Below, piece after piece: positions 1,091 through 51,348 of a stretch of 64,000 nt of DNA. Origin of the DNA: an uncultured virus (IMG/VR IMGVR_UViG_3300006990_000025) (lineage: Duplodnaviria; Heunggongvirae; Uroviricota; Caudoviricetes); the IMG/VR virus record IMGVR_UViG_3300006990_000025. The stretch is one strand, 5' to 3'. The notes beneath the pieces are model-generated. The model was not told the origin of the DNA and made no database searches. It saw only the letters and a list, made by a program, of their open reading frames with translations. The position numbers and the translations under genes are program-made. Numbering within the stretch: the first letter of the stretch is position 1; each line of letters begins with the position of its first letter.

Positions 1091-1286
1091 AAGTATATCT
1101 AAAGTATAGAGTCGAAAAGACTATATACTGCCAGCCTTATGTTCAAGTGGATGATGATTAGCCGAGGGGTCGGCGGCCTCGCAGTACAGCGTTTAGCCAA
1201 ATTTTCAGGGCTTCGGCTCACCCCTGATATTTGGAGGCGTGGCAGTTTCCCGCCCGCCTCCATTAGTCGCCGGAGTCGTCGCCGGT

Positions 1287-1607
1287 TTACTCGTCGCCGT
1301 ATTTGTCACGGCTTAAGTTGAACTCTCTTGAGTCGTCGTAGTTTGTAGGTGTGTGGTTTATTTCGTCTTCAATGGTGTATGAATGCTCTCTCTCGTCTTC
1401 CGAGTCTATGAATACTATCCCAGTGTCAAACCTGCAAGGAGTCTTCAAAACTTCAAAGCAAGGGGTACAGATGTTTAACTCTGCATTATATGTCTTTGAA
1501 GTGTATTGCTTGACTTCGTGAACATGGGTCATATTCTCAAGGGTTGATTCTCTGTCGCAAAAGTCGCAACAGTATAGGGCAGGGGTGTTAATCGCTTGTC
1601 GGCTCAT
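1287..1607 (-). CDS. hypothetical Zn-finger protein
   Basis: CCDFC...CTPC motifs; TATA element at 1629-1635. Confidence 0.7.
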   Translation of the reverse strand: MSRQAINTPALYCCDFCDRESTLENMTHVHEVKQYTSKTYNAELNICTPCFEVLKTPCRFDTGIVFIDSEDEREHSYTIEDEINHTPTNYDDSREFNLSRDKYGDE

Positions 1608-3517: not shown

Positions 3518-3889
3518 CTTTTAATCCCTCATCCAAAAATCTCTGTCATTTGTTAGTTCGTTCATTAAGGCTTCAAACTCGGTTTGTGTCAGGTCGGTTA
3601 CTACTCTGCTCATGTATCTCCATACTGGCACTCCTATATAAGCATGTCGCCTACCGTTTTACCTATATAAACTTTTAGCAAACCTTATATACCCCCAAAA
3701 TCTTTATATACCCCCATATAGTAGCATGTATGAGAGCGGAGAACCGGACACCCCTGAATCAGGCACGGGGGGAGATTGCTACTATACTTTTTAGGTATAT
3801 AAACTTTTCGCAAGACTTATATAGTATAAAAATCTTTATATACCGTCAGTTATATGCTCAACATGACCGGCTTGTTGGGAGGCGAGCGC

Positions 3890-4134
3890 ACCCCTGCACC
3901 CGCCCCCCTGAGCCTGTGAATAAGAAGCGTGCCTTCATGCCCGTATGTCGCAAGCAATCTCTAACGGGTGCGAGCCGTTAGAACCCCATACCCCGAAGGT
4001 CGCACCCTCGTAACATAGTGGGTGGGGTTGGCAGTCGGTGTGGTGTCCAACTTTTACGCCGTGTGACACCCGCCCAACTCCGGCTTTTCCATCACCGGAG
4101 GGAACTTTCATCTATTGATTGGGTCGGGTACAAA
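3890..4134 (-). ncRNA. candidate structured ncRNA
   Basis: A standard viral promoter (4151-4171) has no ATG at the usual distance. The region is GC-rich with several perfect stems (CUCCGG/CCGGAG, GGUGUC/GACACC, AACCCCA/UGGGGUU, UCUAACGG/CCGUUAGA) and a C-UUCG-G tetraloop. Confidence 0.55.
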
Positions 4135-4173
4135 TGTTCCTGTGCATACTCCTATATAAGCATGTCGTCTATA

Positions 4174-4356: not shown

Positions 4357-4937
4357 TCAAACACCCGCCTCTTTTTTGTCCTGTTGTCTTTTCTCCCATG
4401 CGTGATAACATGGGGAAGGGTCACATCTTGTTGATGACTTGCCACACTTACAACAAATTAAGACCACTTCAAGCACCCGCCTCAATAATTTCAATAATCC
4501 TTATTTTGTGATAGATTTCCTTTATCATTTCCTCAACTTCAAGGATTCGCTTTTCCATCATTTCTTTGTTCTCAGGTCGGTAAATTGGAGTTCTGCTCAT
4601 GTATCTCCATAAGGCCACTACTATATAAGCATACCTATAATAAAAATGCTTATATACTACTACCCGCTACGATAGAATAAGGGGGATTGAAGGCCACCTG
4701 ACTAAGGCACGGGGGGAGGGTGAGATAATTTTTTAGGGGTTATAAACTTTTCGCAAACTATATATAGTAGTTGTATATAACAAAAAGATTATATACCCCC
4801 AGTTATATGCTTACTACATGCGGGCGGTCTTGCCGTCAGGCCGACCCGATAAAAAAAAGCCCCCACCCATCCCGCAGGATGAGCAGGGGCAGTTATAACC
4901 CGCAGGTTATACCATCAATAATTTGGGGCGGTTGCCC

Positions 4938-5708: not shown

Positions 5709-6096
5709 GTTATAGACCATGAGGCACTACTACTTAAAGGTGTCTATATAGAAAATCTTTATATAGTAATACTTACAGGACCATATAAGCACGGGCTGAA
5801 AACCGGCTGACTAAGGCACGGGGGGAGATTCCGTCTTTAGTATAGGGGTTATAAAGTTTTCGCAAACCTTATATAGTATATCAGATTTTAACAATATATC
5901 AAAAAGACTATATACCCCCCGTGTCATAGGCGTATCATGCGGGTGGCCTATCGAAAGCCGACCCAACAAAAAAAGAGAACCCCCCGCCCGTGAGCCGGTG
6001 GGCGAGGGATTCAATTTTTTGATTTTTTCTTTTGTGTTTTTTTTCTAATCCTCCTATGATTTTTATTTGAATTTCAGGCGTTTAATGTGGTCTATC

Positions 6097-6597: not shown

Positions 6598-6977
6598 GAT
6601 TAGTCCTATAGGTGTTCGGCACATAAAGGTTTCGGTCATAAAGTGCGTTTTTAGCGTTTTTAGGTTTATTTTTTGGTCGCCAAAGTCAAAAAAATGGGTT
6701 CAAAATGACCTGATATTTTACCGGCAAAAAGTCAAAAAAGTATATAATAAAAACCTTTATAGACCCCCATATGTTAGACTATGAGGGGCGGGCAAATATC
6801 CGCCAAACTTGATACTGTTTTGATATTTTTTTATAGGGTTATAAGTCTTTCGCAAACCTTATATAGTAGGATAAAAAACCTCTATAGAAGCAAACCTTTA
6901 TAGACCCCCAGTGATATTTAACAACTAAGCGGAGCGAGGCCGTGAGGCTGATTTCGTTACATGATGCTTACATGCAA

Positions 6978-10221: not shown

Positions 10222-10542
10222 TCAGTTTGAATGATTCTTTAAGTGGTCAATGAGAACCGCTTTAGTGCCTTTTGTATCAAGGTCATATTTCTCACAAAGA
10301 GCGACCAATTCAGCCTTCTTCATTTTCTTAAGGTTGTTGAGGTTGAGTTCTTCCTTAAAATCTTCTATTTCATCAATGACTTCTTCCGCTTCTTCAATCA
10401 GGTCTTTTACTTCGCTAAGTGAAAGAACCCCATCTTCTAACGCTTCGTCAATTTGAGGTTTGAGTCTAAGATATTGTTTGTAGCCGAATGCTATTACTGC
10501 TATTGCTATTCCCAAATACAATGCTATCGTGGTTGAATCCAT
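10222..10542 (-). CDS. membrane-anchored SAP/HeH-domain protein
   Basis: N-terminal TM helix (IALYLGIAIAVIAFGY), acidic coiled coil, C-terminal LKKMKKAELVALCEKYDLDTKGTKAVLIDHL matching the SAP motif. Confidence 0.75.
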   Translation of the reverse strand: MDSTTIALYLGIAIAVIAFGYKQYLRLKPQIDEALEDGVLSLSEVKDLIEEAEEVIDEIEDFKEELNLNNLKKMKKAELVALCEKYDLDTKGTKAVLIDHLKNHSN

Positions 10543-10878
10543 GATTGGGGCTACTATGTTATCACTTAAAATCTTATTGAAGTCCTTCTCCATGATTTGC
10601 ACTAAGGCTACACCTATAATTACCTATTGGAATCAATAAGGCTTGCTCCATTGTTTTGCTTGTTTAATCATACAGTTCAGGCACATATCACTAATTTTTG
10701 TAAGTTTAAAACATTCTTGTTGGCAATCTTCCGCTTCTTCCATGTATTATCAAAAACAGTCACGGCTAATTATGATTAGGTTCTTCCTTTTTCACTTGTT
10801 TTTTCTTAAAAATACTGTTAGTCACAATCTGTTTATCCATAACTTCTTTAATATATTCATCTAACCATTTATCCATAT

Positions 10879-15546: not shown

Positions 15547-16338
15547 TCATTCCGCATGAAGAATCTCATATATCCTTTCAGCAGTTTTTTCACCAACGCC
15601 GTCTATCTTTTGTAAGTCCTCAACGCTTGCTTGGGATAATATGCTCAAAGATGGGTAGTTCTCAACAATAATCCTGCGTAGTTTTCTTCCTATTTTAGGG
15701 AATGACTCAATAATAGCATTCCTGTATTCCTGTGGCTTAGGTGATTTAGGTCGTGGTACATACAATCTGGCATGGTCGTCATCAATCTTATCCATCACTT
15801 TACGCACGATTACTGCCGCATCATACTTGTCACCAATGAATATAGGTGGATAGCCAACCGCACATAAACTGGCTATGAACCCCGTCAGCACTTGTTCGCT
15901 AACTCCCCTGTGGATTACCTCTTCCTTGATTTCATCGTAAGACTTTGTGACTATCAAATAGGAAAACTCTGCCTCTTCACGCATAGCCCCCAACTGGCGC
16001 AGTCGCCTATCATCAAACAAACTATCCATGAAGTCATCTTCCTTCCTCTCGACGCTGACGCTTTTTCCTGACATATCTCCCTCTCCGGTTTTCAAATGCA
16101 CTACTTCAAATCCTAACTGGCTGAAATACGCTACCATGAGAGGGTGTTCTCTGTGGTCTATTCTCCTTCGGCGGCTCAACAGTTCATTGAGAATACTATC
16201 CCCAACTGTTTCACGCATTACATTATCAAAATCCATAACCCTAAGCAAGGCTAATTTATTCCCCAAAGTTCCTTTCTCCAACAAATCTAAAACCTTTGAG
16301 GGGTCATCTTTAATCAAGTCCATTCTTTTTATTCTCAT
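15547..16338 (-). CDS. ERCC4/XPF-family structure-specific nuclease
   Basis: GD...VERKEDDF matches the ERCC4 GD-ERKxxxD motif; C-terminal tandem HhH (FPKIGRK, IDGVGEKTAERI). Confidence 0.9.
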   Translation of the reverse strand: MRIKRMDLIKDDPSKVLDLLEKGTLGNKLALLRVMDFDNVMRETVGDSILNELLSRRRRIDHREHPLMVAYFSQLGFEVVHLKTGEGDMSGKSVSVERKEDDFMDSLFDDRRLRQLGAMREEAEFSYLIVTKSYDEIKEEVIHRGVSEQVLTGFIASLCAVGYPPIFIGDKYDAAVIVRKVMDKIDDDHARLYVPRPKSPKPQEYRNAIIESFPKIGRKLRRIIVENYPSLSILSQASVEDLQKIDGVGEKTAERIYEILHAE

Positions 16339-17495
16339 TTCTTAGTCCACTTCCTTTTTATTATTTTTCTTGGGTTAATATCCCCAAAGTCAATGAATTT
16401 AGGACATGCGCTACCGACACAACACCCATCTTTCTTGAGCGTGGTGCAATTTGCTACCGATGAATAACGGGGGTCGTCAAAGATTGTAGCCATTTGATAC
16501 CGCCTATGTTCTCCGTTGTGTAAATCCACATATCCCATTTGTGTTCCTAATTGTAGCCATACGGCTTCTAATTGCTCTTGGGTCATATGGAGAGTCTTAG
16601 CAAACATAGCCGTGTGGAAGCGTGCTTTATGAGCCGGATTACGCCGCTTGAGTTCATTGACAACTCCCATACATTTCTCATTTAACGATTGTAGGAAAAC
16701 GGAAGTTTCGGACTTGGTATCGGTAAATCCAAACTCCGTATCTATGACTGGCTTCAACTCGGTTTCCGGTTTATGCAACTTAACATCAATCAATGAAATA
16801 AATTCCCTGAGCGTTAGTTTATCTCCTTCACACTTTGGTATAAAGTATCGAGGCCGATAACTTCTATTGACAATTTCATCATGACCTATTGTTTCCAATT
16901 TCCTGATTGGAACTGGCATGGCATATCTTCCCGACACCTTTCCATCTTTATTCACATGGCGAGTATATGGCATTCGGCATAATCGCTTTGGGTCGCCTGT
17001 TGTCTGTTCATCCAATGTATTCAACCCCAATGTATGCTTTAGATGAGTTTGTGTTTGATTGACTAAGTTCTTCAACGCTTCACTTGAACCGTCTTTATGG
17101 TCGAATTTGAATCTAGTCGGCTTATGCAGGACAAATAGATGATAGCCCTTGCTACCGCTATATTGCACCCAATGAGCCACATTTATTCCCGATAGATACT
17201 GTGACAACCGTTGAGCATCAGCAAACGCATTCTCCGGCTTTGATGGATGGTCGAAGTCAAAGAAGGTTAGGCCATAAATAATAGACTTCGGAACTTGTTT
17301 TCCAAAGTCAAAGGTTAGGTTGTCATATCCGGCAGTTGAAATAAAACAAGAGTTCTCACCCTCCCAACTTACAAATTTTCTATACGCTTGTTCTGTTGCA
17401 TAAACAAACTGTTGTCTTGGGTTGCCTACCGCTCTTGGATAATGTGCAAAGCCCAACTGCTCACAAAGAGTATCAACTCTATCTGGCGTAAGCAT
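16335..17495 (-). CDS. archaeo-eukaryotic primase, PriS-PriL fusion
   Basis: AEP motifs FFDFD, YSGSKGYH and D..RLCRMPYT; C-terminal KCM...HKARF...NCTTLKKDGCCVGSAC resembles the PriL Fe-S domain. Start moved to Met8. Confidence 0.85.
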   Translation of the reverse strand: MLTPDRVDTLCEQLGFAHYPRAVGNPRQQFVYATEQAYRKFVSWEGENSCFISTAGYDNLTFDFGKQVPKSIIYGLTFFDFDHPSKPENAFADAQRLSQYLSGINVAHWVQYSGSKGYHLFVLHKPTRFKFDHKDGSSEALKNLVNQTQTHLKHTLGLNTLDEQTTGDPKRLCRMPYTRHVNKDGKVSGRYAMPVPIRKLETIGHDEIVNRSYRPRYFIPKCEGDKLTLREFISLIDVKLHKPETELKPVIDTEFGFTDTKSETSVFLQSLNEKCMGVVNELKRRNPAHKARFHTAMFAKTLHMTQEQLEAVWLQLGTQMGYVDLHNGEHRRYQMATIFDDPRYSSVANCTTLKKDGCCVGSACPKFIDFGDINPRKIIKRKWTKK

Positions 17496-17541
17496 GTCTA
17501 ACTGGGCTACTAACACCTATTTAGACTTCTTTCTTTAATCG

Positions 17542-34048: not shown

Positions 34049-34170
34049 ATCTGTCAAGGTGCATACCCACCATTATGAATTAATCCTTCAAACCATTCTC
34101 TTTAGTTTATACATATATGTTATCTGTTATGTGTGTGTGTTAGTATGTGTTGTAGTATGAATAATTAGGA

Positions 34171-34191
34171 TAACCCCCCGTAGGGGGGTTA
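34171..34191. repeat. perfect 9-bp inverted repeat in an AT-rich intergenic region
   Basis: TAACCCCCC-GTA-GGGGGGTTA. Confidence 0.9.
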
Positions 34192-34299
34192 AAGAATCAG
34201 ACAATTGCAGGGTTTGAACCGTCAAGGTCTTTCAAAACTATATGCAAGAAAAACACTTGGCGACAAAAACACCAATTAATTGTAATCATTAATATTGAA

Positions 34300-34491
34300 A
34301 AAGATGTGCCTTGCCCGCCCGTTCTATCTCACCATCTGCCGCTCAACCGAGCGAGAGCCTTAACTGTCGGGGGCAAGGACTTTTTTGACACACTTTCCTT
34401 TCCGTACAGAGCCTCCGCCCATTCCCCCCGTCGAGGGTGGATTCGTAGGTTGTGGTCCGGTATTGCAGTCGTTTCATGTGTCGGCTACAAA
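34300..34491 (-). ncRNA. candidate structured ncRNA
   Basis: Promoter at 34507-34529 has no ATG at the usual spacing; GC-rich with stems GACACAU/GUGUGUC, CCUUGCCC/GGGCAAGG and CGCUC/GAGCG; ends in a U-tract. Confidence 0.55.
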
Positions 34492-34529
34492 CAATGGTAG
34501 TGACCACCCCTATATAAGTATATCGCCTA

Positions 34530-36380
34530 TTAGTTAGATAATTCCAACGCTAACTGCAAAGTCTTAGTCAAATCAGGTGATTCTCTTCCCACATTTAGTG
34601 TCATTGAAGGTGGGCTATCAACAGTCATATTCCACGACACACCCATGATTCTATGTATTCCTGATATTCCAGTCGTGGCAAATTCCATAGCGTCACCAAC
34701 TCTAATATCGAATGTTGAAGGTATTCCATCAACTGAATATCTAACCTTTGCCCTACCTATGTTTGATAACATTAGTTTGGCAAACCTCTCCGCTTGAATA
34801 TTATTCGTTATTGAAGATTCAGTAAATATTTTTTGAACGGGTCTTGTTGGATATTGTACGCTACCAATGTTCGGATAAGTAAAGTTTATTCCGGCAGTTT
34901 CATTTATCACAACTACAACATTGAAAAAATCCAAATCTCCTTTATCTTGCTCAACATAAGTTGGGTAAAAATCCAAAGGCTTACTTGTCCTTCCGGTAGC
35001 CGTTAATTCTCCACCCCTTAGAGGTTGTAAATTGCTATCCGCCAAATCTTGTAATATCCTAATGTTGATAAGTCCAGTTTTCTCTGCCCTCAAAGAATGT
35101 ATTTTTGGTGCGGAGTTCATGAATTGTAAAACTGATTGACATGCACTTAGAATTGTTTTATTTGCTACGCTCAAGGAGTTAGGAACAACTACATTTGATT
35201 CAACAATTATGCTATCAATTGGAATAGGAACGGAAGAACCCGCTATCAGGTTTTTTAGTATCGCTAAACCATCACTTGTTGAAATAAGTTTACTGGATTG
35301 AACTATTTCATTCGATAAGTAGCCCAATGTATCTAAGCAGGTCAGGGTGATTGACCTTGCCGTTTCTTGTATATCCGATACATAACCTGTGTAAATCAAA
35401 GGTGGATTAGCCCAATTATTCGGTGAAAGATAAACTTGAACTGTATCTCCGACATTGACAATTCCTTCCCTCCTTCCTTGAATGCTTGAAATTGAAATGT
35501 TCATACTGCGTGGTGTATTCAATCCTTCCGAGCATGATATTGAAGTTATGCCCTTCAATAACCCTAAGCCATTAACTACAACCATAGGGCAATTTGGTAT
35601 TCCTTCATCTTCCGATATTTGACCATAGATATTACGATACAATACTTGCCTTGACCGTGCAAAAAATACTCTGTGTTTCCAACCATTTCTCAACCCGCCG
35701 AGTCTAAGTGACTTCGGCCTAAATTGATATTTCAGTCCTTCGGGATTCCACCCGCCGTTTGTAAAGCCTAAATCCCCCAAATCAAATTCTAAGCCTCCAT
35801 CTTGAACAGAGGAAGGTTCACCGTTTGAAAATGGAGTTGTAGTAAAAGCAAATCCACCCCTTGACCCACCGCCTCTTCTGGTTGTCAAGTCATTTATGTC
35901 GCCAATTGGTGAAGATGAATAGGCGTGAAACCCCATACCTGCAACATCACCGCTACCTATGTTACCTCCCCCTCCAACGCCCGAAGCGAATATTTGGGGG
36001 TCAAATGGTCTTGGCACGGCTAAACTTGTGTAGCAAACTGTTTCTATCCTGTCTTGAAGATAATTACCGCCTATATCGGAAGGAAATGGTATCAAAGATA
36101 AACCAAAATCGCTCGGATAATGAATTGGCCGCTCCATCATTTCTTTTTCACTTACAGATTGGGCTATTGGGGTTGATAGTTTTTCATTCTCTTGGAGTTC
36201 ATGTGTTACAGTTTCAGCGTAGGTTCTTGAAACCCATCTGGCAATAGCAGTTCTTGGTATTCTGTGGTCTTGACCTATTTCCTCTATGTCCTGCTTCATT
36301 TCATCGGGAGGTAGTATGTAGGAAAAGCCGTCTTCCGGCTTCCTAACAATCCTGTTATACCTCTCAATAGCATCGGACAT
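34530..36380 (-). CDS. baseplate hub / Tal-like (gp27/gpD-fold) tail protein
   Basis: The C-terminal half shows a hub pattern: ITSISCSEG...VGDTVQVYL...IYTGYVSDI...ITLTCLDTLGYL...DIRVGDAM...HRIMGVSW. Confidence 0.7.
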   Translation of the reverse strand: MSDAIERYNRIVRKPEDGFSYILPPDEMKQDIEEIGQDHRIPRTAIARWVSRTYAETVTHELQENEKLSTPIAQSVSEKEMMERPIHYPSDFGLSLIPFPSDIGGNYLQDRIETVCYTSLAVPRPFDPQIFASGVGGGGNIGSGDVAGMGFHAYSSSPIGDINDLTTRRGGGSRGGFAFTTTPFSNGEPSSVQDGGLEFDLGDLGFTNGGWNPEGLKYQFRPKSLRLGGLRNGWKHRVFFARSRQVLYRNIYGQISEDEGIPNCPMVVVNGLGLLKGITSISCSEGLNTPRSMNISISSIQGRREGIVNVGDTVQVYLSPNNWANPPLIYTGYVSDIQETARSITLTCLDTLGYLSNEIVQSSKLISTSDGLAILKNLIAGSSVPIPIDSIIVESNVVVPNSLSVANKTILSACQSVLQFMNSAPKIHSLRAEKTGLINIRILQDLADSNLQPLRGGELTATGRTSKPLDFYPTYVEQDKGDLDFFNVVVVINETAGINFTYPNIGSVQYPTRPVQKIFTESSITNNIQAERFAKLMLSNIGRAKVRYSVDGIPSTFDIRVGDAMEFATTGISGIHRIMGVSWNMTVDSPPSMTLNVGRESPDLTKTLQLALELSN

Positions 36381-40372: not shown

Positions 40373-40508
40373 TTCTGTTCCCTCTGTTTAATCGTAGCAG
40401 TCGCCCCTATATAATACTATCTCATATATTTATTATCAAGAGTTTAAATACAGTCAGGTAAAAAATTGCTACCCTAACTTCCATTGGAGGCTATTGACCA
40501 CGATAACA

Positions 40509-43500
40509 TCAAGGCCAACCGGCTATGCCTTCACCTGTATTTGTATTCTCACCGATTGACATTGTAGCACCGCCAACAAACGGATAATACAACTTACTTC
40601 CAAAGTGCGGGGTTGAATACCAAGACAATTCGTTAGTAGTCCATCGTAAATCTATTTCTCCGGCATTGTGTCCGTGAAACTTTTGATACCTCAACTGTGG
40701 AGAGGAATGAGTAAAGTCCTCATGCCCTGCCATAGTTTGAGCCGATGATGCGGGCGAGTATTTTCCAGTCCTTGAATCGTAAGCCATAGATGGCACAGAC
40801 AAAAATCTCAAATTTACATCACGGGCAACAGAACTAAAACTACCACTTGGTTTTGATACCTCAACTGTTGGGATAAATAATTCCATAAAATGAACCCGTT
40901 CACCATGCGCTATACTTACATTCAGTCCACCGTCAGGCCAACTCATCGTTATATTTTCATCAAAGCCTTCTAACTGTGCGCTAGATGGAGTTCCAACCCA
41001 TTGAAACGGTGTAGCAGTACCGGCTTGTGTTGCTTGTGTTCCAGTTCCAGTAAATACTCTTGGATTCCCTGTATTGATTCGGGGTATTGTAAAACCAAAT
41101 ACCATGTGCAACTCATCTTTGTCCGATATTGTGGTTGTCATGTATCTATATTGGTAATTAAGTCCGGCATATATACCATCCCTGCTTTGATTAACTAAAC
41201 TCATGTAGGACATTCCCGAACCCGATACAAATCTCTTAGACCAATCTTCTTTTGTTTTCCAAGATACAATGTATGATGAATACTCCGCCGAGCCTCCGCT
41301 TTGCCACCCAGTAACATAAGCAATATCATCTGTGTCAATGACTGCATCATAGTAAGTTATAGGATTTCCTGCAAAATCCGTATTTGCCCCTAAAATTATT
41401 GTAGCGTTTTCTCTATCAAATTCAAACCTTCCCGATGGTGTTAAGTCTTTAATGACTTTTCCATAATTTGCATAAATTGAAGTGTGACTCAAATTGCCAT
41501 AAGCAGTAGCAAAGTTGTAATTATTTCCGAGATTATAATTCGCCCCTCTATAAAATACAACGGGGAAGTCATCACCTTGTAAACACACTTTGGGTTTATC
41601 ACAATCGTATGTATAATGTCCTTTTGTCATAGTCATGGTGCTTACCTGTGCATCATTAACGGGTCGTCTTGAAACAACTTGCCAAGTTTTATTTTGTTGA
41701 AAACTTGAACCGCCGGTTGAACCGTTGCCCGAAGCCAACAAAGGCCATGATGTTTCATTTTCTAATTTTAATGTGTAAAGAATTTGACTCCCTGCCGGTA
41801 TTGCGCCATAATCACGCTCAACAACTCTGCACACTAAATGCAACCTATTTTTGGAGTCACAAACTAAACTTGGTTCTCTCAAATCCCAATTGTTTGACCC
41901 CCCAACCAAAACTGGCGTGTGAGCCGACCAATCCCAAGAATACACTAACTCCGGTTGGGTAGTAACTAAATCCCTCTTAGCGTATGTATAATACAAAACA
42001 TGCTGACCATCTGGTTTTTTAATTTCAACAATTGCATGTATTGTTCCGTTGCTATCGGAAGCAAATGCCGAACCATGTTGTCTGTAATTTGTTGGTGTGC
42101 CACCGACAATCACCTTCAAATGTGGTCCGACTTCATCTTTTCCATCGTGGATTTGATTATTAGTGACCTTGACTGACTTCCTATTCCAAAACAAGTCCGA
42201 ATGAGCGGGTTTAGAATAATGAGTCCATACTGGTATGTTATCTGTTGCTGATTTTGCTGAACGGTCTAAACTAAATGTATGTAATGTTCCATCTGGAGTT
42301 CTCACAATTCTTTGACCCATACCCAAGCCGTAACCATCGTCTAAGTTTGTATTAGCACCTGCGGTTGATTGATTATGTGTAGGAACTCCAAGATTTGAAT
42401 TTTGACTTCTTTCAAATGGTGTATATACAGTCATTGAAGTATCTTCATAACCACTTCCCCTTGCACTCACAATGCCTCCACTATCCCACACTGCCCTTAT
42501 TGAGTTAGATAGGTGAACATCAACCGATGACTGCAATTGTTCTGCCGTTGCTATGTAATCGTGCTTGTTCATAGAATCAATATTCCCAAGTAATGCCGGA
42601 GAATATCTTTCATTTGCTACATGGAGAGCATCATAGTCTGTTCCTGTATTTATGGGAATAGCCCCTGCATGGAAAAACTCTGTTGGGTGGTCTTTCCAAA
42701 ATTCTGAGAAAGTGGGTTGTAACAAGTTTGTTCCACCCGTCTTTCTTGGCTTGCCAAGTATTCTTGCATTGGCGTTTAATTCCGCCTGTCCTATTTCAAT
42801 TGATGACAATGTGGATTCCATATTCCAAAGATTAGTTCTAAGATATGGTTGAGCAATATAAGGTGACATTGAAGATTGAGCAAAATTAGTCGGTGTCTGT
42901 CCTTTTATTCTTCCAATCAAAGGATTGTTTTCTAAGTTGTATCTGTGCAACGGTAAATGTAATTCAAGGTCTAAACTATTCTTGGCCTTCGCTCTTGCTC
43001 TAACCTGTATTTTTTCAGGTATTAGTAATTCTAATGGTATCTCATAACCAAGACCCGCATTGACTTGCTTCCATACCCTGTCAGGTTTGAAAGGATGGTC
43101 GGATGACATTATACCATAATGCAACGGTCCGTGATGTGAAATACCAATCATACCACCTGTAAATTGACTAAGAGTTGCCCCCTCGTCGCTTACATCGTTT
43201 GCATAGAAGTTTTTCCATAACCCAGTTGATTGAGTTCCAATGTGAAGTCCTTGAACCCCAACTGCTTGAGGTTGATTTGAATAAAATTGAAGCCCGTTAC
43301 TAACTGTTGTATCATATAATCCTTGTTTGAAAGACCATCCCGCCCAACCCAATTCTTGATGTGGATTAGCACCTGCGCCAAAGTCAGCAAACCCAATTGT
43401 AGTAGGATTGTAATGTGTTTGGAATAAGTGCTTATAGACTGCATTTAAATTATCCCAATGACGGAGAATATCATACGCTTGATATGTATCACCCGTTATT

Positions 43501-46500
43501 GGATTCATCATAGAAAAGTTAATTGTCGGTTGATAAAACGGATAACCGCTAACTGGTCTTGTCAATTTTGCATCAACATAAAACATCTTATCTTCATCTT
43601 TTTCAACATCAATATTTGCATCAGTAAATAATTGAGTCATCAAGGTTGAAGGTGAAGATGTGGATTGTCTATACAACAAAAAATCTTCTAACTGTAAGTG
43701 TGGTAAACACTTGGCAAAATTTGGATAAGACATACGACACTCTGGATAAGAACCGTAAGTAATTGGTATTGCTTTTTGACCGCTCTCTTGAAACCAATAT
43801 GCCAACTGTGAACCCGACCAAAAACCAACATCACGCTTCCAATTGTGATATGAATTTCCATCTTCGGTTTCAACATCAAAAATGTATGGGTTTGATTGTA
43901 ACTCATATCTTAGTGTTGGTTTAAAGTCCAAAGTTATATTTTTACCATCTCTTGTGAAACTAAATAATTTAGAGCCTTCAACCTTTCTTGCTTTTTTGTT
44001 ATTAAATAATAACACAAGACTGCGAGCATAAGTGTCACCTAACATGAAATTCCATGTTGGAAGTCCTGAAAAATTTGACAAGCCCCCTACATAATGTGTA
44101 CCCGTTGCTATATCGGGCAAAGGTGGTCCACTTGTTGTAATTTCAACACCAAGAATCGGGTCAAAATGTGTAGTGCTTGTGTCGGCAGGTATTGTATTTC
44201 TTGATGAAATTATTGGCTTACATACCCCGTTGTGATAATAATACCCCGCAGGGCAACGGCCATTTTGAGCAATATCTGGTTGAGGCGGATAGCCGATTAA
44301 GGGTGAAGGGTAATCTAAAGTGGTGTCAATCCTATCACGATGAATAGCCAATATCTTCATTCTTCCATCTTCCATAATTTGAAAATCTCCAACATGAAGA
44401 GTCGGGTGTTTCATTGGTTGGTTGTTAGTGTTTAGAGAATGTCTTGGATGCTTCATAAAAGCCTTATTTTCGACACCAAGATAGCGCATAGCCTCTATCT
44501 GTGGGAATACCCATTCATGTACGCTCCAACATGCGGCAGGTTGTTGTACTCGTCTAATTTTGTCTTTATCGTAACCATGCGAATGAGCAAGGTCATATGA
44601 TTGATTGGAATTAATTTTTTTGATGAAGTTCACATCACCTATCAATGACTTCCCTAAATACCATTTATCCAAAACTCCTTCAACGGACATTTTTGTTGTA
44701 TAAAACGGGTCTTTGAATGGGGAGTATTTGAAAATCACCATCTCCGGTCCGTCAGGAATTGCAGCAGCACCGGCAGCCCCTCCGCCCGCTTTGATTTGTC
44801 CTGTTCCATAGATTTGTGAATTTAGATGTGCCATTTCAATAACATCGGTGGCAACAAATAATTCGTCATTAAAAACATCAGCCGACCAATGATGGGAAAT
44901 ACCCCCTTGTTGATAGAAGCCACCTGCCTCTATTGCGCTCGATAACAAAGGCACTTCGGCAAAGCCCGCACTGGCGAGCGGTTTGAATGGCGTTAGTTGA
45001 ATTAGGTTGAATTGTCTTGGCATAACACTATTGACACAATAACTATCATTTGTTGAATTTATTTTTGCTACATCTGCACCATCAACATAAATGCGCTCTA
45101 AGTCAGGGTTTAGTCTAAATATGGCATGATAGATATAACACCCCTCATCTTTTAAATTTAGATTGACACTTGTTCTTGCTTCCGGTGCATTTCTTTCTTT
45201 TGGTACTCCCAATTTTGAATTTGATGCTGATGCTGATGCTGACAATCTGGTTCTTGGTGCAAGACTAACTAACACATGATAATCAACTAATGGTTTATTG
45301 AATTTTGAATTTGTATTCGGTTGAGGGTGTGAATTTCCTTTTTCAACGGTGACTTCTTGATAATTAACTAATGCAGGAACAATTTGTATTTTAGTCGGTA
45401 TCATGTTTTTCATAAAGTCCTGACTCAAACTACTGGTCTTTGTATAGTTTCCTCCATTCAAATGTCCGTTATCTCCGAGAATATATCCCACTGGCTTAAC
45501 TAATTGTTGGGTTGTTCCGTCTGTTGGTGGAGTTTGTGAAGTGTCTAGTGTTATTGGAGTTGAACCACTTACCCATCTTGTACTTCTTCCAAGTGCAAAT
45601 TTACTAGCATTATCACTTCTAGTATCATTCGATTCATAATAACTTGCACTCTTAATAGAATCACGATTTCCAGTGGTAGTCATGGCCTCTGTAATTGGTG
45701 TGATATAAGCACCGTCTGTACCATATCTGTACGCTCTATCGGCTAGTGATTGAGTTCGATAGGCTTTACTGTTCCTTCTTGGCGAAGTTCCAGAATGAAC
45801 TTGAATATTTATACCTGCAAAAGTTCCTAAATCGTCATCCGACCAACCCGACTGTGCATCTTCCGATACGGACATAAAAGCAGTTGCCGTAAAGATTCCT
45901 TCATATCCTATCAAACCGCATGAGTCCATGACACATAGGTTGCCTAAATCGGGTCGGCCAAGTGGTCGCCAAAGCATTTCGCCAGCATCGGCAGGAGTAT
46001 TGTTTGAATCGCTAAGAAAATCATTAGTTCCAATGTATTGTATTGTTTCATTGAAAGGTATTGGTTCTTGGGGCATAGATGAAGTTGTTTGGCCGCCTAA
46101 TCCATCGGGTTGAGAAATGGGTTTGTAACTGCCACTATTAGAACCGCTATGTATTGGAATAGGTTGTAGTGATTGAACATTGATAGCCCAGTGTGCTGAC
46201 ATTGTGTAGGAGTCCTCCATAGCGGGGAGTTGCGATGGTAAAATTGGTTCGCCTGAATAATGCGTCATGACCGGACTTGAGTTAATTGAAACTCCATATT
46301 TGATATTGTGATTATCTCCATAAGTTGCACCCATGCCATTACTGGGTAAACATATTTTTGAATCATAAACTATACCCATTCCAGTTTTTAGAGGGTCGTC
46401 TGTATCAGTTACGGGTGCATTGTATCTCCCCGCATATACATCATGTGCCTCAAGTAAGCCGTTGTCATGCGTCATGCTTTGCGACCCATCGTGTTCAGCA

Positions 46501-47009
46501 CTGAATCTATGACAAGTATGATTAGCAGGTCGGCCTTTTCCATAAACCCCTCCGGCATATTGTTCATTATGAGCAACATTGTATCTCCCCGCTTTAGTGA
46601 ATGTCAAAGCAGTTCCTACTGGTTGAGTTCTTTTAGATACACTCCTACCATTTACGGTGTGTAACATCATTTGAGCATACTCTAAATCACCTGTTCCAAA
46701 GTTAAGAACTGGTGAACCAATGTTAAGAAGTTGTCCTTGAAAACAAACATTACCACTCGACAAAGATATGAAGTCGTCGCCAAGTGCGGTTGAATCATAA
46801 TTAGCCCCGCCCACAACTATTGGTTTGTTAGTTGATGTTGCTTGAGAATCGGCTTGCCATATACTTGAAGTAGCCAAGTTTTGCATTGGGTTGCCTGTGT
46901 CAGCCGTTCCAGTGTATAAATTGGCATCATTATCCGACCACACAACCGTAAAAGGCAATCCCGCTCTTGTTCCAACCGGCGGAGTCAGGTCGGTTAAAGT
47001 GGTTGGCAT
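40509..47009 (-). CDS. giant probable virion/adhesin protein with C-terminal beta-propeller-like repeats
   Basis: 2166 aa; blade-like repeats RTPDGTLHTF, SDSNGTIHAI, CDSKNRLHLV, SDKDELHMVF; late-type promoter GGTTTAGAACC. Confidence 0.6.
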   Translation of the reverse strand: MPTTLTDLTPPVGTRAGLPFTVVWSDNDANLYTGTADTGNPMQNLATSSIWQADSQATSTNKPIVVGGANYDSTALGDDFISLSSGNVCFQGQLLNIGSPVLNFGTGDLEYAQMMLHTVNGRSVSKRTQPVGTALTFTKAGRYNVAHNEQYAGGVYGKGRPANHTCHRFSAEHDGSQSMTHDNGLLEAHDVYAGRYNAPVTDTDDPLKTGMGIVYDSKICLPSNGMGATYGDNHNIKYGVSINSSPVMTHYSGEPILPSQLPAMEDSYTMSAHWAINVQSLQPIPIHSGSNSGSYKPISQPDGLGGQTTSSMPQEPIPFNETIQYIGTNDFLSDSNNTPADAGEMLWRPLGRPDLGNLCVMDSCGLIGYEGIFTATAFMSVSEDAQSGWSDDDLGTFAGINIQVHSGTSPRRNSKAYRTQSLADRAYRYGTDGAYITPITEAMTTTGNRDSIKSASYYESNDTRSDNASKFALGRSTRWVSGSTPITLDTSQTPPTDGTTQQLVKPVGYILGDNGHLNGGNYTKTSSLSQDFMKNMIPTKIQIVPALVNYQEVTVEKGNSHPQPNTNSKFNKPLVDYHVLVSLAPRTRLSASASASNSKLGVPKERNAPEARTSVNLNLKDEGCYIYHAIFRLNPDLERIYVDGADVAKINSTNDSYCVNSVMPRQFNLIQLTPFKPLASAGFAEVPLLSSAIEAGGFYQQGGISHHWSADVFNDELFVATDVIEMAHLNSQIYGTGQIKAGGGAAGAAAIPDGPEMVIFKYSPFKDPFYTTKMSVEGVLDKWYLGKSLIGDVNFIKKINSNQSYDLAHSHGYDKDKIRRVQQPAACWSVHEWVFPQIEAMRYLGVENKAFMKHPRHSLNTNNQPMKHPTLHVGDFQIMEDGRMKILAIHRDRIDTTLDYPSPLIGYPPQPDIAQNGRCPAGYYYHNGVCKPIISSRNTIPADTSTTHFDPILGVEITTSGPPLPDIATGTHYVGGLSNFSGLPTWNFMLGDTYARSLVLLFNNKKARKVEGSKLFSFTRDGKNITLDFKPTLRYELQSNPYIFDVETEDGNSYHNWKRDVGFWSGSQLAYWFQESGQKAIPITYGSYPECRMSYPNFAKCLPHLQLEDFLLYRQSTSSPSTLMTQLFTDANIDVEKDEDKMFYVDAKLTRPVSGYPFYQPTINFSMMNPITGDTYQAYDILRHWDNLNAVYKHLFQTHYNPTTIGFADFGAGANPHQELGWAGWSFKQGLYDTTVSNGLQFYSNQPQAVGVQGLHIGTQSTGLWKNFYANDVSDEGATLSQFTGGMIGISHHGPLHYGIMSSDHPFKPDRVWKQVNAGLGYEIPLELLIPEKIQVRARAKAKNSLDLELHLPLHRYNLENNPLIGRIKGQTPTNFAQSSMSPYIAQPYLRTNLWNMESTLSSIEIGQAELNANARILGKPRKTGGTNLLQPTFSEFWKDHPTEFFHAGAIPINTGTDYDALHVANERYSPALLGNIDSMNKHDYIATAEQLQSSVDVHLSNSIRAVWDSGGIVSARGSGYEDTSMTVYTPFERSQNSNLGVPTHNQSTAGANTNLDDGYGLGMGQRIVRTPDGTLHTFSLDRSAKSATDNIPVWTHYSKPAHSDLFWNRKSVKVTNNQIHDGKDEVGPHLKVIVGGTPTNYRQHGSAFASDSNGTIHAIVEIKKPDGQHVLYYTYAKRDLVTTQPELVYSWDWSAHTPVLVGGSNNWDLREPSLVCDSKNRLHLVCRVVERDYGAIPAGSQILYTLKLENETSWPLLASGNGSTGGSSFQQNKTWQVVSRRPVNDAQVSTMTMTKGHYTYDCDKPKVCLQGDDFPVVFYRGANYNLGNNYNFATAYGNLSHTSIYANYGKVIKDLTPSGRFEFDRENATIILGANTDFAGNPITYYDAVIDTDDIAYVTGWQSGGSAEYSSYIVSWKTKEDWSKRFVSGSGMSYMSLVNQSRDGIYAGLNYQYRYMTTTISDKDELHMVFGFTIPRINTGNPRVFTGTGTQATQAGTATPFQWVGTPSSAQLEGFDENITMSWPDGGLNVSIAHGERVHFMELFIPTVEVSKPSGSFSSVARDVNLRFLSVPSMAYDSRTGKYSPASSAQTMAGHEDFTHSSPQLRYQKFHGHNAGEIDLRWTTNELSWYSTPHFGSKLYYPFVGGATMSIGENTNTGEGIAGWP

Positions 47010-51073: not shown

Positions 51074-51348
51074 GAGAGGGTCTTGTATAACCCACCTATA
51101 TTAGGTGTGAGAGATTTGTAGGCCGATTCTAACGGTTCTTTTGCATAAGGTATTGCTCGTTTGGTGTTGAGTAATCCTTGCCTCTCAAACTATCCTATGG
51201 GTCAGTCCTATATAAACCTACCGCATATAATGTTTATTAGAAGTGATTAAGCCCTGACGATATTCTTCAATCGCCTCACGCATACATGCCTTACACTTAT
51301 GCTTGCCTTCAAACTGTGGATTGTGAACCAAAGGGCGAATGCACTTCA

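Follow-up and report, generated by a model that had tools for sequence, protein, structure and literature searches.

What does a viral promoter drive when no start codon follows at the distance at which the virus's other promoters have one? The question is raised by a locus in the window, by which we mean the whole 64,000-nucleotide (nt) stretch analysed here from an uncultured virus (IMG/VR record IMGVR_UViG_3300006990_000025; Duplodnaviria; Heunggongvirae; Uroviricota; Caudoviricetes). There, on the minus strand, a GC-rich unit of ~190 nt (34298–34488, hereafter RNA2) stands between a tail-like gene and the gene of a putative replication ATPase. A preliminary description, made from the sequence alone, had taken it for the second member of a viral class of non-coding RNAs (ncRNAs), the first being a unit starting at 4134, or else for an RNA that primes replication at an origin. 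The reading that we favour, with about half of our confidence behind it, makes RNA2 an accessory non-coding cassette that stands on its own, placed in a hypervariable slot of a marine virus whose host is probably archaeal. It would be self-contained, comprising a virus TATA-type promoter, a GC-rich non-coding transcript of ~190 nt and an oligo-T terminator; the transcript from G34488 would fold into two stem-closed domains joined by A6, and the whole would sit in the slot between those two genes.

A promoter lacking its start codon

The window holds 20 exact copies of the TATA-like core TATATAGG, all on the minus strand; shuffled sequences are expected to hold 1.79, and none of 100 shuffles reached 20. 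A conserved aTAGrCGrnannnT stretch precedes each of these cores, and at 15 of the 20 promoters an ATG lies 19–21 nt downstream. The promoter at 34516, which begins one base after the stop codon (34532–34530) of the upstream gene for a protein of 616 amino acids (aa), is one of the five without an ATG at the usual spacing, as the preliminary description had it, and the conjunction of promoter and missing ATG is more than chance. Of the other four, that at 3669 is a tandem promoter, that at 40413 serves a leadered gene with AGAGGG in the position otherwise taken by the ATG, that at 51214 has a GAGAGG-type unit, and that at 4158 has the unit starting at 4134 (hereafter the 4134 unit). In relatives, the non-ATG promoters mostly read aaacAGAGGnnA...ATG, and leadered genes start AGAGG at the usual place of the ATG. 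Because the promoter-to-ATG spacing is fixed at 15 of 20 sites and the AGAGG of leadered genes falls at the same place, the RNA2 transcript is predicted to start at about G34488. The elements of the unit are as follows.

34507–34529, minus strand: virus-type promoter TAGGCGATATACTTATATAGGGG, with its TATA-like core TATATAGG at 34516–34509
34476–34491, minus strand: 16-nt module TTTGTAGCCGACACAT at the predicted transcript start (consensus over four sites TTTGTAsCCGACCCAA)
34298–34488, minus strand: predicted transcript of ~190 nt, its start taken from promoter spacing and its end placed in the T5 run
34387–34482, minus strand: domain 1, closed by GACACAU (34482–34476) with GUGUGUC (34393–34387), pair probabilities 0.96–0.99
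34343–34477, minus strand: internal open reading frame (ORF) MKRLQYRTT..., 44 aa plus stop, judged not a gene
34381–34386, minus strand: A6 linker joining the domains, read from the sequence
34309–34378, minus strand: domain 2, closed by CCUUGCCC (34378–34371) with GGGCAAGG (34316–34309), pair probabilities 0.70–1.00
34353–34340, minus strand: apical hairpin CGCUC-GGUU-GAGCG of domain 2, pair probabilities 0.89–0.93
34307–34305, minus strand: ACA 3' of domain 2
34298–34302, minus strand: T5 run, a likely oligo-T terminator from its sequence

The closing stems, the A6 linker, the GGUU hairpin and the U-run of the preliminary description are all present on the minus strand, and when the start is set at G34488 the minimum-energy fold is exactly the two-domain fold that it had drawn, with pair probabilities of 0.70–1.00 in the three named stems (at least 0.89 for all pairs but one). 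The two-domain fold is nonetheless a model prediction, and both transcript ends are placed from sequence features. In base composition the unit is an island, with 53–57% GC against 40.7% for the genome (the value of the window) and 35–36% for the tract downstream.

Might the unit simply encode a small protein, the 44-aa ORF being translated from a short leader? An ATG-started ORF is there (34477–34343), the 4134 unit likewise has one, starting ATGAAA, and in relatives the slot carries small ORFs. Against this, the ATG lies 31 nt after the TATATAGG core rather than 19–21 and has no Shine–Dalgarno (SD) sequence before it, and in contig G001, described below, a single substitution turns this ATG, the only one, into ATT, at a base that is unpaired in the predicted fold. 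A phmmer search of the ORF against 1.84 billion representative proteins returned four matches, all of them repeat proteins of 775–3373 aa in which each repeat matches at ~23 bits and 37–45% identity; we read these as summed chance similarity, and no small-protein relatives were obtained. PHROGs gave no match to the ORF, and a six-frame search of 151 genomes, from the order of the metagenome-assembled genome (MAG) introduced with the host below, found the minus-strand ORF in none (0 of 151) and a plus-strand ORF of 64 aa in one (E 0.009, with two stops inside). The preliminary description had named conservation of the 44-aa ORF as a protein as the finding that would speak against an RNA; the ORF has no credible relatives and has lost its start in G001. 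We consider the small-protein explanation very improbable and the unit likely non-coding, since it has no leaderless ATG, no SD sequence, an ATG changed to ATT in the variant and no credible protein relatives.

Nor does the unit belong to a known RNA family. Rfam 15 gave no match over the window at the gathering threshold, none at the unit with E ≤ 5 (only weak, unrelated ones elsewhere: mir-208 at 4734–4802 and CrcZ at 668–930) and none with E ≤ 10 on 34280–34520 (241 nt) or on the 4134 unit. ARAGORN called none of 11 cargo units tRNA-like at thresholds of 100, 90 or 80%, the shuffled control averaging 0.45 hits per set at the last of these. A C/D box small RNA was rejected, the C box RUGAUGA and the D box CUGA both being absent from the 189-nt unit. 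The layout of hairpin, AAAAAA, hairpin and C-ACA-UC-UUUUU does invite comparison with the H/ACA RNAs of archaea and eukaryotes, which likewise have two stem-closed hairpins, a hinge with which AAAAAA is compatible (ANANNA) and an ACA near the 3' end; in a host that is probably archaeal, RNA2 could on this account be a virus-encoded pseudouridylation guide. The likeness ends there. The unit matches no Rfam H/ACA model in the 241-nt search, and its apex is an ordinary stem of 5 bp capped by GGUU, in which we saw by eye no K-turn or K-loop and no tandem sheared G.A pairs. In the predicted fold the internal loops are small, with no clear canonical pocket, large and two-sided, at 14–16 nt from the ACA. 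Moreover, an ACA and a T-run also follow the unrelated units of L006 and L007 (see below), and may therefore belong to a shared flank. A guide RNA is scarcely credible on this evidence. Among the literature listed by our searches, nothing describes RNAs of this kind from viruses that infect marine group II archaea, and in PMC11706807 the terms non-coding, ncRNA, promoter and leaderless each have 0 occurrences.

Replacement of the unit in related viruses

The preliminary description had proposed conservation of the position upstream of the 663-aa replication-ATPase gene as a check, and it turns out that many relatives carry something else. IMG/VR contains 37 relatives of the 663-aa protein, 61–100% identical to it, and our comparison concerns those that keep the order of tail-like gene, slot and 663-aa gene; in the more distant ones (L018–L038 and L200) another gene lies upstream and the slot is missing. 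L005–L008 and L010–L016 hold other cargo, as set out here (identities are those of the 663-aa protein).

Window, 34530–36380, minus strand: upstream 616-aa tail-like protein (PHROG 1887 tail protein, E 1e-5)
L003 and L004, slot: RNA2, identical to the window
L005 (98% identical), slot, 2580–2762: leaderless ORF of 61 aa, highly acidic, no PHROG match
L006, L007 and L008 (90–95%), slots: unrelated GC-rich units of ~290–330 nt, beginning GUAGGGGAG
L007, slot: the GC-rich unit plus the acidic ORF, each behind an identical 25-nt promoter
L010, slot, 2565–2777: Cys-rich ORF of 71 aa with CxxC...CxC, no PHROG match
L013, 2562–2777: ORF of the 71–72-aa type with CxxC...CxC, no PHROG match
L011, slot: GC-rich unit of 146 nt
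L012–L016, slots: further mixes, some on the opposite strand

Homology between cargo types ends inside the promoter and resumes at ATTACAATTAATTGG, and a T5 run, which L006 and L007 also have behind their unrelated RNA cargo, is absent after the ORF cargo of L005. From these limits the mobile unit is promoter plus cargo, with a T5 run of its own for RNA cargo only. The cargo of L006 and L007 differs by insertions or deletions of 12, 1, 1, 3 and 7 nt and is therefore non-coding; its 5' hairpin tolerates U-A/U-G and G-C/G-U changes. RNAalifold on the three sequences of L006–L008 gave 65 pairs, 10 of them with two-sided changes, and a covariation term of −1.4, which is weak, the alignment of L008 being doubtful. 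Cassettes may be exchanged by recombination, with the near-identical copies of the promoter as the site on one side and the conserved region downstream as that on the other. By analogy with the small accessory proteins that occupy the slot in relatives, the RNA may be a stable small molecule that acts in trans, probably by binding protein, in virus–host conflict or in the takeover of the host.

Phage morons are promoter–gene–terminator inserts between conserved genes of lambdoid and HK97-like phages. RNA2 resembles them in having its own predicted promoter and terminator and a deviant base composition, and in lying between conserved genes where it is present, absent or replaced among close relatives. 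It differs from them in that its cargo is apparently RNA, its promoter is an archaeal-type TATA promoter common to the virus's ordinary genes, and no empty slot occurs among the syntenic loci of its relatives. Except for protein coding it has what defines a moron, and might by analogy be called an "RNA moron". RNAC and RNAD of phage T4 are a second parallel, as virus-encoded, promoter-driven, stable-looking small RNAs, dispensable, variable and without assigned function; theirs, unlike RNA2, lie in a tRNA cluster and undergo tRNA-related processing, whereas none of the 11 cargo units here is tRNA-like and the window contains no tRNA genes.

How widely does the unit itself occur? It was found in two of 39 related records, while a third matches its 5' module over 25 nt, and its copies are identical in contigs from at least three samples. 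The only non-identical DNA copy, in contig G001 (L162), ends inside the unit and shows one difference in 148 aligned bases. We found no diverged homologue in the 39 records or by local BLAST (word size 7) against the fetched relatives, and none in two anchor scans of viral contigs, which returned three and two stretches, all of them known copies; a metagenome scan with the 3' flank of RNA2 returned three stretches, none with RNA2. Derivation from the host was considered and rejected: 13 of the 151 genomes of the MAG's order gave matches at E 0.01–0.1, all of 17–32 nt, which is chance level. Of the metagenome runs, three gave DNA contigs identical to the window. The fourth, X24, gave a 170-nt contig from an RNA library that covers 34308–34414 with three differences; this stretch, which takes in domain 2, is the only part of RNA2 to turn up in an RNA-library contig. 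A variant thus exists in which the 3' domain of RNA2 is joined to a different 5' part.

Several points weigh against our reading. Identical copies and a single-nucleotide difference offer no substitutions by which covariation in the RNA2 stems could be judged. The X24 contig continues for 63 letters upstream into unlike sequence that resembles promoter spacer, and RNA libraries can hold DNA, so that it is no proof of transcription. Folding energy does not depart from dinucleotide shuffles, with z = +0.51 for 198 nt and +0.13 for 189 nt (domain 1, +0.08; domain 2, −1.0). Where the transcript starts, which run terminates it and whether the host is archaeal are themselves inferences, and the last depends on the binning of one contig, which is weak evidence. 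A role in trans or as a decoy, finally, is argued only by analogy. Of the claim that RNA2 is a structured RNA, then, the two-domain fold stands as the minimum-energy fold; its stability is no more than chance.

These points bear most directly on the main rival, that RNA2 is a functionless remnant, a decayed or randomly acquired GC-rich fragment behind a portable promoter, whether transcribed or not, with no selected fold or role. Its energy equals that of shuffled sequence, stems of 7–8 bp arise easily at 56% GC, and it is an orphan, the 39 viral records, the two anchor scans of viral contigs and the metagenome scan having yielded no diverged homologue. On the other hand, promoter-driven GC-rich non-coding units with end-closing stems recur across many relatives, in this slot and elsewhere (L006–L008, L011, L013, L014 and the L165 array), RNA2 has a T5 terminator of its own where ORF cargo has none, and it is identical in at least three samples, though this shows only recent spread. 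We regard a remnant as unlikely but as an explanation to be taken seriously.

If the units are real RNAs, what such viruses exchange at their accessory hot-spots includes RNAs besides small proteins, and the cassette reading would provide concrete candidates, with defined promoters and ends, for RNA-based host manipulation. To our knowledge almost nothing has been established about the ncRNAs that archaeal viruses make and, where the hosts are uncultivated marine archaea, nothing at all. A wider conjecture, decidedly unlikely as a whole, is that uncultivated marine archaeal tailed viruses keep swappable RNA morons of 100–330 nt as decoys or inhibitors in conflict with the host, the RNA equivalent of anti-defence proteins. 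These promoter-borne, terminator-ended, GC-rich and structured units would trade places with small accessory proteins in hot-spots; the 16-nt module would be their shared handle for a protein of virus or host, and RNA2 a strain-specific member.

Two further loci lie on one viral contig of 4959 nt: L165 has at least three tandem arrangements of promoter and GC-rich non-coding unit, and L166 has one more. Two of the L165/L166 units begin with a GUAGGGG-loop-CCCCUAC-CGAAG hairpin, also seen in L006–L008.

The shared 16-nt module and the downstream region

Does the 5' end of RNA2 mark a class, as first proposed? The likeness on which that proposal was built is real: 34491–34476 shares 13 of its 16 bases with the 4134 unit (which has 15 of the 16 in common with L163), and both UGAAA and UGGGCGG are present in the two units. 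The module also stands at the same distance from its promoter at 4134 in the window, in L160 (contig G039) and in L163 (contig G040), and the sharing of it is beyond chance. A search of IMG/VR for TATATAGG-N16-17-TTTGTAsCCGAC found five stretches, of which three are RNA2 copies and two are L160 and L163, homologous loci of other viruses; a broader scan for promoter plus TTTGTA found at least 119, of which all but four lack the upstream promoter consensus and were discarded as chance. The likeness is nevertheless limited to the module: in local BLAST it is the only significant similarity between RNA2 and the 4134 unit, and the sequences 3' of it are unrelated among sites. In L160 and L163 it heads only ~55 nt, followed by a second promoter and a leadered gene, whose 409-aa protein has Walker A and B motifs by eye. 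Since it thus also heads ~55-nt leaders before a protein gene, the module is best read as a promoter-proximal or 5'-terminal module on otherwise unrelated transcripts, not as a marker of a fold; it might serve as a promoter-proximal control site or a common 5' handle. Membership of RNA2 and the 4134 unit in one viral ncRNA class is weakly suggested.

Other uses of the shared motifs did not convince. Antisense near-matches of the 5' motif (11 on the plus strand and 7 on the minus strand) reached only a permutation P of ~0.03–0.05, and we set them aside. GGGCGG is present in 7 of the 13 cargo units, where shuffles gave 0.94, and is borderline, the best shuffled 6-mer also having reached 7 (the maximum over 300 sets). 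An SD mimic or ribosome sponge was rejected because the regions upstream of ORFs show no such SD motif. An exact 15-nt match to 34495–34481, around the start of RNA2, stands at 10473–10487 (plus strand), antisense to a SAP-domain gene at 10222–10602; with E 0.41 it is probably chance.

The 4134 unit (3915–4134, minus strand) has no homologue in the fetched relatives, an ATGAAA-started ORF of ~58 aa by eye and fold z-scores of −1.24 and −1.63. A third GC-rich island, at 1130–1290 (minus strand; up to 62% GC), lies after the stop of the ORF at 1287–1607 and before the promoter at 1077; no promoter belongs to it, and it contains GGCGGGCGGG, a CCGAAG loop and several hairpins.

The proposal that RNA2 primes an origin was prompted by what lies downstream.

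34057–34297, minus strand: conserved AT-rich non-coding region upstream of the 663-aa gene, near-identical in L003–L008 and recognisable in L010–L016
34269–34265 and 34253–34249, minus strand: further T5 runs
34245–34237, minus strand: conserved variant TATA box GCATATAGT, with a possible start ~21 nt downstream
34191–34171, minus strand: conserved C6-loop-G6 hairpin, its outer pairs changing compensatorily among L003, L010, L012, L014 and L015
32066–34057, minus strand: 663-aa P-loop protein, putative replication ATPase (Walker A GQSASGKT)

The region also has a CA-rich tract, and a GGTGGG SD sequence stands before the TTG start of the 663-aa gene. The preliminary description called that gene a helicase, a label that goes beyond the evidence: the protein has a Walker A motif, no match by sequence or profile in Pfam, PHROGs, NCBIfam or the PDB, and an AlphaFold model with a mean pLDDT (the model's per-residue confidence score) of 57, falling below 50 in the P-loop region (109–314). 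It is best called a putative replication ATPase.

Could transcription from the unit into the AT-rich region prime or regulate replication, or regulate expression of the 663-aa protein, RNA2 acting in cis as a leader or primer? RNA2 lies directly upstream of the conserved AT-rich region and the P-loop gene, and 51214, G039 and G040 show the same order, in which a promoter and a short non-coding unit precede a second promoter with its gene. ColE1 RNA II is comparable as a structured transcript that runs towards an AT-rich region beside a replication gene. RNA2, however, unlike RNA II, is not conserved with its replication module and has predicted terminators in between: relatives L005–L008, whose 663-aa proteins are 90–98% identical, keep the 240-nt region almost unchanged without RNA2, and three T5 runs and a separate conserved TATA-like box intervene between unit and gene. 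The virus, moreover, has a primase-polymerase-like gene of its own at 16335–17516. We consider this role quite improbable, and the claim of an origin-priming or R-loop RNA is not supported, the unit being replaced in relatives with a near-identical downstream region and the T5 runs intervening. If anything here is a candidate origin or regulatory leader of the replication module, it would be the 34057–34297 region rather than RNA2, because that region is conserved whatever the cargo of the slot. The analysis in this respect corrects a tempting assignment of the unit to the replication origin.

The virus, its host and its promoters

The window comes from a tailed virus, as its gene set of terminase, portal, prohead protease, major capsid, tape-measure and tail-tube-like proteins implies; two C5 methyltransferases, a PD-(D/E)XK nuclease, a Rad3/DinG-like helicase and the primase-polymerase-like protein were also recognised, and every recognisable gene lies on the minus strand. 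A complete relative measures 82,791 bp, and ~16 kb of the ~80-kb genome falls outside the window. Comparison at the DNA level with named phage records found none similar, and the terminase is only ~30% identical to that of Bacillus-type phages. The sequence occurs in marine metagenomes.

We hold with considerable confidence that the host is archaeal, because of the TATA-plus-leaderless layout, the MAG-binned relative and the archaeal neighbours of the 663-aa protein. Leaderless genes of archaea have this signature: TATA box and ATG stand a constant distance apart, the box being centred ~25 nt upstream. A contig of 35.9 kb binned in a "Methanobacteriota archaeon" MAG carries a 73%-identical relative of the 663-aa gene, and Atlas neighbours of the protein carry PF27228, a family named after a Methanothermobacter plasmid protein, with one neighbouring cluster 100% archaeal.

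The promoters admit another explanation, in which the host is bacterial and a phage-encoded RNA polymerase starts at the GG of TATAGG, so that RNA2 would have ~20 extra bases at its 5' end and the ATG-type genes would have fixed 20-nt leaders. T7-type promoters resemble a ~23-bp promoter ending in TATAGG, and the conserved promoter here has that length and that end. The 54 ORFs of the window, for their part, include no RNA polymerase (~16 kb of the genome being unseen), and a 2166-aa protein looks structural and gave no match to the polymerase motif D.D.D. An SD sequence is missing from promoter-proximal genes yet present at some internal ones at least (GGAGGTG ahead of the gene that follows 2564), and the MAG-binned relative and the PF27228 neighbours point to archaea. 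A phage polymerase in a bacterial host is accordingly improbable in our judgement, and we keep to the archaeal reading.

The 2166-aa protein itself (40509–47009, minus strand) is rich in S, T, G and N; it matches no family, contains no RNA-polymerase-like motif and is probably structural. At the promoter at 51214 (51214–51070, minus strand) an end-paired non-coding unit of ~80 nt (GAGAG...CUCUC) is followed by a second promoter (TAATATAGG) and then by a leaderless ORF, a layout kept in contig G005. The left 7 kb of the window, where genes are few, contains at several places repeated AT-rich modules of the GGTATATAAAGATTTT...TATATAAG type, 75–92% alike (3657–3712, 3789–3844, 4697–4811, 5807–5880 and 6830–6877), which could be iterons or a second type of promoter.

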